In this document: positions 7,414 to 7,486 of the stretch, piece by piece | How positions within the stretch are numbered: the stretch's first letter is position 1 | Layout: every line of letters begins with the position of its first letter | The notes under the pieces: model-generated | Told to the model about the DNA's origin: nothing | The model's input: the letters and a program-made list of their open reading frames with translations, nothing else | Databases searched by the model: none | Translations under genes and position numbers: made by a program | Source of the DNA: Patescibacteria group bacterium | Lineage (GTDB): Bacteria > Patescibacteriota > Microgenomatia > UBA12405 | Assembly: GCA_050943115.1 (NCBI GenBank) | Contig: JBMNON010000007.1 | Span: forward strand, 1-53,150 | Direction: 5' to 3' | DNA length: 53,150 bases

Positions 7414-7486
7414 CCCACAACCCCAAGACCAAGAAGCAAACCCGCTTCGCGTTGAGGCGGAGCCTCTTGGTCTGGGTTGTTGTGGG
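7414..7486 (-). other. Long imperfect RNA hairpin between HTH gene stop and HHR1
   Basis: CCCACAAC/GUUGUGGG, AGACCAAGA/UCUUGGUCU and CCGC/GCGG stems nested around an apical loop. Confidence 0.8.

Follow-up and report, generated by a model that had tools for sequence, protein, structure and literature searches.

A stable hairpin joined to a type III hammerhead behind small genes of Patescibacteria: a candidate module for making mRNA 3' ends

What would a long and very stable RNA hairpin do when it is placed immediately behind a stop codon and directly in front of a ribozyme predicted to cut itself? The question is raised by two small gene cassettes on the minus strand of a 53,150-nt stretch of a Patescibacteria contig (the whole of this stretch is referred to below as the window), each of which closes with such a hairpin and a hammerhead. 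In bacteria and prophages, small genes that lack conservation are known to be flanked by multiple hammerhead ribozymes (Perreault et al. 2011, PMC3088659; de la Pena et al. 2017, PMC6155905), and passages of the earlier paper propose for bacterial hammerheads a role in the processing of long transcripts into gene-length mRNAs (PMC3088659). In the corresponding passages of the 2017 review, the role of bacterial hammerheads is treated as an open question (PMC6155905).

Cassette 1 consists of a promoter-like site at 8025-8053 (ATGACT-17-TACAAT, with a TG before the -10 element), an open reading frame at 7492-7929 encoding an ORFan of 145 aa with a C-terminal HTH_17 domain (PF12728, E = 7.5e-11), post-stop hairpin 1 at 7414-7486 and type III hammerhead 1 at 7354-7409, for which the cut is predicted after C7402, between 7402 and 7401. 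Cassette 2, likewise on the minus strand, comprises a promoter-like site at 39726-39754 (TTGACT-17-GATAAT; this site and that of cassette 1 come from a consensus scan only), a 5'-UTR hairpin at 39604-39659 with 22-nt arms that ends 23 nt before the start codon, an open reading frame at 39014-39580 encoding an ORFan of 188 aa that has a zinc ribbon at its N-terminus and matches HTH_17 weakly at its C-terminus, post-stop hairpin 2 at 38932-39012 and type III hammerhead 2 at 38878-38932, with the cut predicted between 38925 and 38924 at a GUU triplet. The 5'-UTR hairpin is located directly upstream of an AAGGAG ribosome-binding site and ranks second in length among the inverted repeats of the window, so that the cassette 2 mRNA would bear a strong hairpin near both ends; in the same position, cassette 1 has only a small stem (CCUCAACUGAGG). 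The genes downstream of both ribozymes possess -10-like sequences of their own, read by eye in the case of cassette 1.

Most of what a preliminary description of this DNA had said about the architecture of the two post-stop hairpins was borne out. They begin 5 nt (hairpin 1) and 1 nt (hairpin 2) after the stop codons, and the composition bias reported for the lower stem is present in both, the 5' arm being rich in C and A and the 3' arm in G and U. The middle stem, described as perfect and 9-13 bp long, has 11 bp with one G.U pair in hairpin 1 and 13 perfect bp in hairpin 2; both hairpins contain an internal loop and an apical stem of 5 bp, and neither is followed by a clean U-tract. What had been taken for a G/U-rich linker is, however, mostly the 5' strand of hammerhead stem III, and the real gap between hairpin and ribozyme is 0-2 nt. 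The predicted tail from hairpin to cut measures 12 nt in cassette 1 and 10 nt in cassette 2. Hairpin 1 has approximately 30 bp with bulges and a minimum free energy (MFE) of -46.7 kcal/mol (z = -6.78), and hairpin 2 approximately 28 bp and an MFE of -44.9 (z = -7.25). None of 200 shuffles folded as well as either, and no other inverted repeat of the 53 kb is as long as these two and the 5'-UTR hairpin of cassette 2. In each case the sense strand is more stable than the antisense strand (-45.7 versus -44.1 for hairpin 1, -43.8 versus -37.3 for hairpin 2). Matches of both hairpins to microRNA families in Rfam are a mere reflection of a generic long hairpin. Both hairpins are real, exceptionally stable and in contact with the hammerhead.

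The hammerheads themselves carry CUGACGA and GAAA and have a GUC or GUU cleavage site. Stems I, II and III measure 5-6, 4-5 and 7-9 bp, respectively, in the two copies, the cores are complete, and the combination of conserved core, U-H site, loop-closed stems I and II and open stem III places both in type III. With Rfam model RF00008, hammerhead 1 scored 42.1 bits (E = 1.2e-7) and hammerhead 2 scored 46.6 bits (E = 7.1e-9), both below that family's gathering threshold of 48.5 bits; a search of the whole window at Rfam gathering thresholds gave no match. A custom covariance model built from 50 related hammerheads returned 53.8 and 65.3 bits, respectively. In cassette 2 the ribozyme forms in the MFE fold. 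In cassette 1 the active-ribozyme fold lies only 1 kcal/mol above the MFE fold, in which the stop-codon region UAAGCA (7491-7496) pairs with the stem III 5' strand UGUUUA (7404-7409), a pairing that is absent from cassette 2. Judging from the folding model, a ribosome terminating on cassette 1 would free the stem III strand, and cleavage could be coupled to translation.

The preliminary description held that the two hairpins share shape but not sequence, and in this it was wrong. Anchored at the cleavage site, they align without gaps at 38 identical positions out of 83 (46%), against a shuffle expectation of 21 +/- 4 identities (approximately 25%; p < 5e-5, or p = 2e-4 with offsets allowed). 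The middle stems, with 5' arms GACCAAGAGGC in hairpin 1 and GACCGAGAGAC in hairpin 2, occupy the same columns, and their 11 common pairs are made up of seven identical pairs, two wobble changes (G.U/G-C) and two compensatory changes (A-U to G-C and G-C to A-U). Over the full length, hairpin 1 has 30 pairs, and at the columns of 23 of them hairpin 2 also has a canonical pair. Given the ungapped identity and the column-for-column agreement of the middle stems with compensatory changes, the two hairpins are, by these alignments, diverged paralogues with retained pairing, and the covariation signal between them is small but real at this level of comparison.

Homologues of the cassette 1 protein were found only for its HTH part, as remote HTH_17 domains, apart from identical copies; a search for homologues of the cassette 2 protein found none, and the two proteins share only weak C-terminal similarity. 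Both cassettes look acquired on account of their base composition (GC approximately 50% in flanks of approximately 35%), and other contigs that carry them are identical save for homopolymer indels. Their neighbours are ordinary chromosomal genes, among which no integrase, recombinase or reverse transcriptase was called. A comparison with an empty site through the neighbouring PMT_2 gene yielded only a 28%-identical relative, against which the insertion boundaries were not definable. The absence of a called reverse transcriptase beside either cassette led us to reject a retron, and, with no integrase called there either, the earlier suggestion that the hairpin is a template or priming structure is unsupported. 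Upstream of the cassettes, at 8212-8226 and 39766-39785, there are imperfect direct repeats of hammerhead pieces (75-87% over 15-20 nt), which correspond to part of stem I in cassette 1 and to the 3' end in cassette 2. They were rejected as target-site duplications because they represent different ribozyme pieces in each cassette and their identity is at chance level; probably they are chance matches in AT-rich DNA, relics of older ribozyme copies being the less likely alternative.

Other features of the window concern the genes around cassette 2. The Glug-repeat gene downstream of it (37091-38823, minus strand) is present as two open reading frames, 38823..38515 and 38452..37091, and its calls on otherwise identical contigs differ (399 aa versus 453 aa), for which a frameshift, an ambiguous start site or a difference in sequencing may be responsible. 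Only 7 nt separate the end of a TACAAT -10 box from the ATG of this gene at 38823, and this short distance suggests, as far as a promoter motif can indicate, a leaderless mRNA. At 41604-41629 and 43561-43588, in intergenic gaps of a row of minus-strand genes, there are two copies of a perfect AT-only palindrome of 26-28 bp (AAAACATTAATAA and TTATTAATGTTTT), which may be an operator or other protein-binding site.

The combination of hairpin and hammerhead recurs in other genomes. A hammerhead pattern taken from both window copies led to 73 genome loci, mostly in metagenome-assembled genomes (MAGs) of Saccharibacteria and other Patescibacteria, and 65 pattern matches with proper stems I and III were kept as a comparison set, which has one fixed stem II sequence and is one sub-lineage, mostly of MAGs. 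The 90 nt upstream of these 65 hammerheads have a median MFE z of -3.65, with 74% below -2, compared with a median of -0.65 for the 90 nt downstream and of -0.29 for the 90 nt after 619 other ORF stops at the same loci (Mann-Whitney p = 2e-20). In approximately one quarter of the related hammerheads the hairpin is weak or missing. The strongest upstream hairpin is always 5' of the cut and ends a median of 11 nt before it; its distance to stem III has a median of 5 nt, does not exceed 2 nt in 25 of 61 cases, and is greater than 15 nt in one quarter. A U-tract is rare throughout the family, with at least 5 T in the 8 nt after the hairpin in only 6.5%. Many of the hairpins measure 28-36 bp and many others only 8-14 bp, and their sequences differ in spite of the stable fold. 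Among 12 extra hammerheads that the covariance model found outside the first pattern, seven had z of -2.4 or lower and others had short hairpins adjoining the ribozyme; a long hairpin also precedes all five distinct metagenome hammerheads that were fully confirmed by the model, one of which (L090) has a hairpin in the C/A versus G/U style of the window. On viral contigs, 2 of approximately 100 pattern matches had the hairpin and type III layout and the rest were almost all of other hammerhead topologies, so that, as far as this single pattern shows, the module seems to belong to chromosomes and not to phages. The proposal that the hairpin is a conserved functional RNA domain is supported both by the pairing kept between the window copies and by the stable hairpin in front of most related hammerheads.

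Several loci show variations on this arrangement. The pre-ribozyme hairpins of seven Saccharibacteria loci (L027, L042, L053, L046, L065, L066 and L040) share the motifs UUCGUCGCAG ... CUCCGAA, and their apical stems differ yet still pair, a subfamily that MAFFT and RNAalifold could not align; L027, L042 and L053 have a second similar hairpin farther upstream. RNAalifold, working from sequence-based alignments, returned 0 pairs for hairpin subfamily A3 and 2 compensatory pairs of 26 for subfamily A4; hairpins of this kind call for a structural aligner. At L043 (approximately 590-670) and L001 (5090-5190) the 3' arm of the upstream hairpin doubles as the stem III 5' strand of the hammerhead; only one of the two structures, hairpin or active ribozyme, would then be able to form at a time, and this could act as a switch. 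Same-strand arrays, in which small ORFs are each followed by the element, contain four ribozymes within 1.8 kb at L037 and three each at L063 and L001. In the L037 array (200-2300, minus strand) a conserved hairpin (CCUGAUUCGAAAGAACAGG or a variant of it) lies some 30 nt behind each of the four hammerheads, and next come a ribosome-binding site and a small ORF.

Does the hairpin act as RNA, and does it depend on the gene in front of it? In 39 clean ribozyme-adjacent hairpins there are 85 G.U pairs in the sense strand and 46 in the antisense strand, and 27 of these hairpins are more stable in the sense strand and 12 in the antisense strand (p = 0.0035); for whole 90-nt windows this asymmetry is gone (34 versus 30, p = 0.84). 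The signal is moderate and points to an RNA function of the sense strand. A stronger argument is that the hairpin always lies 5' of an element workable only as RNA. In more than 60 loci the module is preceded by unrelated ORFan genes for small proteins, and the hammerhead is absent at the loci of the remote HTH_17 relatives. Since the module follows unrelated proteins and these relatives do without the hammerhead, the suggested binding site for the encoded HTH protein finds no support as a general role; an HTH_17 operator is disfavoured by the same facts, the palindrome not travelling with the HTH gene. As to what follows the module, the clear cases comprise 15 with a convergent and 15 with a co-directional gene, orientations that rest on crude ORF calls, with L062 and L049 checked by hand. 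The distance from the ribozyme to the stop of the convergent gene ranges from -3 to +192 nt and in 14 of these 15 cases does not exceed 71 nt. Squeezed between convergent genes, such a module sits where a terminator sits, and there is no downstream cistron for it to release.

RNA of cassette 1 is present, as assembled contigs, in four metatranscriptomes, the anaerobic-digester runs X9, X12 and X27 among them. These contigs start at 7991 or 7975, downstream of the promoter-like site, and none of them covers hammerhead 1. One RNA contig, X9, spans 7486-7991 at a depth of 18.7, the second highest in the first 20 kb, and stops exactly at the first paired base of hairpin 1. The RNA coverage of the response-regulator gene behind cassette 1 is confined to a conserved stretch of 31 nt on contigs of other organisms, and cassette 2 is represented by one RNA contig (39351-39590). 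By way of calibration, the contigs of an RRM-type gene in the window stop approximately 30 nt before its canonical terminator hairpin. The cassette 1 3' end is in or just after the hairpin, at a resolution of assembled contigs that is too coarse to tell cleavage at 7402 from termination at 7414 or to register rare read-through. The gene used for calibration (3702-4028, plus strand) encodes a glycine-rich RRM-type RNA-binding protein, is the top transcript in the first 20 kb (depth 64-78) and is followed by a textbook bidirectional terminator at 4047-4074, with one RNA contig ending at 4017 against an Illumina adapter. Canonical terminators with U-tracts are found in the window at 5059-5034 and 4074-4047. 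Neither full post-stop hairpin was called in a terminator scan, whose sole match there was an alternative 6-bp stem-loop in hairpin 1 (7448-7433), and an intrinsic terminator was rejected since there is no U-tract and the tails UAUGUUUAUG and UGUUUGUGUU belong to hammerhead stem III. At L001, one contig of what is probably an RNA run extends across the hairpin and enters the ribozyme, and is ambiguous; no RNA runs were listed for L037.

Anatomy, recurrence, retained pairing and RNA coverage stopping at the hairpin are direct observations. The explanation that we favour, with confidence somewhat above even, is that hairpin and hammerhead together constitute an mRNA 3'-end module, in which the ribozyme would cut and the hairpin would protect the upstream mRNA; cleavage in vivo, protection of the end and the fate of the downstream RNA are what we infer. 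Transcription would start at the promoter that belongs to the cassette, cross the ORF and the hairpin and enter the type III hammerhead. In 75 copies the ribozyme core has stayed intact immediately behind the hairpin, and the space between the two is too small for a promoter, which implies that transcription must regularly pass the hairpin. The ribozyme would then cut itself between the 5' strand of stem III and stem I, and nearly all of it would depart with the downstream fragment, because in the type III topology the cut falls close to the 5' edge of the ribozyme. The upstream mRNA would keep a tail of 10-12 nt with a 2',3'-cyclic phosphate right behind a hairpin of approximately 30 bp, and the hairpin would block 3'-to-5' exonucleases, giving the mRNA a defined and stable end that dispenses with a U-tract terminator. 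Adjoining stem III, the hairpin may in addition stack on it and keep the ORF from mispairing with the ribozyme, and the downstream fragment with its 5'-OH would presumably be degraded. Among the three roles that the preliminary description had offered, a 3'-end stabiliser after cleavage is the best fit (the hairpin lies 5' of the cut and has no U-tract, the genes on either side of the module are often convergent, and the RNA contigs end there); the stabilising itself is the part that we infer. The same explanation has its limits in hairpins of 28-36 bp, which exceed what is needed to block an exonuclease and which RNase III could cut, and in hammerheads that are predicted, both below the Rfam gathering threshold and the second with a GUU triplet. 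A more far-reaching version, to which we attach a tentative and rather low probability, would see the hairpin and type III hammerhead as a widespread, protein-independent substitute for intrinsic terminators in Patescibacteria, in which co-transcriptional self-cleavage would set a hairpin-protected 3' end with a 2',3'-cyclic phosphate, and the nascent downstream RNA with its exposed 5'-OH would be degraded, possibly by an RNase J-type exonuclease that catches up with the polymerase and releases it.

Other explanations place the weight differently. The hairpin might mainly help the ribozyme, by blocking mispairing with the ORF and stacking on the short stem III, with 3' protection as a side effect; cleavage would then be fast and independent of context, which is compatible with a 3'-end module. 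The close spacing (2 nt or less to stem III in 25 of 61 cases, and 0-2 nt for both window copies), the hairpin 3' arm that overlaps the stem III strand at L001 (at 5184) and L043, and the MFE fold of cassette 1, which is only 1 kcal/mol lower than the active fold and has the stem III strand paired to the stop-codon region, all speak for such help. A role of this kind would, however, be served by a 10-bp clamp, yet many hairpins have 28-36 bp; one quarter of them lie more than 15 nt away, and there is no matching insulation 3' of the ribozyme (median z -0.65), so that we consider it unlikely as the main function. If instead the hairpin were a terminator or strong pause working without a U-tract, and the hammerhead a fail-safe that cuts only read-through transcripts, the RNA contigs would end at the hairpin with none downstream, as they do, and the module would be found at terminator positions, including those between convergent genes, as it is. 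We nevertheless hold this to be improbable: the U-tract is missing in 93% although the same genome uses U-tract terminators, the intact core in 75 copies behind the hairpin requires that transcription pass regularly, and the probable-RNA contig of L001 that crosses the hairpin into the ribozyme is weak evidence in the same direction.

It seems very unlikely that the long interrupted duplex is an RNase III site of the kind known from phage T7 early mRNAs, with the ribozyme as a separate or redundant signal, for although duplexes of 28-30 bp with internal loops are in the substrate size range, many hairpins of the family are too short at 8-14 bp. The palindrome could also act as DNA, either as an HTH_17 operator or as an attC-like or other recombination site of a mobile cassette. 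Such a role would suit the HTH_17 domain (excisionase-type) with which both window proteins end, the foreign GC content and ORFan cargo, and the same-strand arrays of small ORFs elsewhere, each with an element after it. We give it hardly any credence in view of the same module behind unrelated proteins elsewhere, the HTH_17 relatives that lack it, the G.U asymmetry in favour of the transcribed strand, the constant position of the hairpin 5' of an element functional only as RNA, the lack of a called integrase or recombinase beside either cassette and flanking direct repeats at chance level. The integron attC class was rejected in particular: the stem bases CCCACAAC/GUUGUGGG and ACAAACCCAA/UUGGGUUUUGU do not fit both boxes RYYYAAC ... 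GTTRRRY, both cassettes have promoter-like sites, and no integrase is among the neighbouring genes. REP-type palindromes were rejected too, there being only two copies in 53 kb that are 46% identical.

The module resembles published bacterial hammerheads in its location between short ORFs of varied and unknown function and in the same-strand arrays of L037, L063 and L001, which fit the published idea of cutting polycistronic RNA (PMC3088659). It differs from them in that the published accounts, in the passages that deal with bacterial hammerheads, mention no upstream hairpin partner (PMC3088659, PMC6155905). Unlike the published hammerheads linked to prophages, the examples described here are of type III and chromosomal in Patescibacteria, and, unlike a site of polycistron processing, half of the clear cases here face a convergent gene and have no downstream cistron. 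Intrinsic terminators and stabilising 3' stem-loops are similar in having a hairpin just after the stop codon at the end of a unit, and the upstream mRNA would here also end in a hairpin; in contrast to intrinsic terminators, the module has no U-tract, its stems are 2-3 times longer, and the end would be made by self-cleavage, with a 2',3'-cyclic phosphate, rather than by polymerase release. In phage T7 early mRNAs, a cut by RNase III in a long duplex with internal loops gives the upstream message a 3' hairpin that protects it; the cut here would come from a ribozyme beside the hairpin and not from a protein acting within it. RiboJ is a synthetic insulator in which a hammerhead and a designed hairpin make expression independent of neighbouring sequence. 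Its hairpin lies downstream and serves the ribosome-binding site of the next gene, whereas the hairpin here lies upstream and would serve the preceding gene; the layout of L037, with the ribozyme followed by a conserved 5'-UTR hairpin and ribosome-binding site, is RiboJ-like. Self-cleavage past an ORF also sets the fate of the transcript in the reported beta-globin co-transcriptional cleavage element and the Clec2 3'-UTR hammerhead, and the products of the glmS ribozyme are degraded by RNase J1, a 5'-OH product being a possible entry point for 5' exonucleases. These cases come from other organisms and have no paired protective hairpin, and they serve as analogy only.

A full-text search of the literature, of incomplete coverage, returned nothing on hammerheads of Patescibacteria/CPR or on an upstream hairpin partner. 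Hammerheads beside small bacterial ORFs are known; the constant 5' hairpin partner in one Patescibacteria lineage is apparently new. Together with the position at gene ends and an abundant transcript that stops there, this constant partner suggests a concrete function, namely self-made, hairpin-protected mRNA 3' ends. If this is true, the module would be a compact device, independent of host factors, by which horizontally acquired genes are insulated from the genes around them, and it would offer a natural model for synthetic ribozyme terminators and insulators. Should the reading as a terminator substitute also hold, the module would be a naturally occurring terminator that works by means of a ribozyme, and prokaryotic hammerheads would thereby gain a function.
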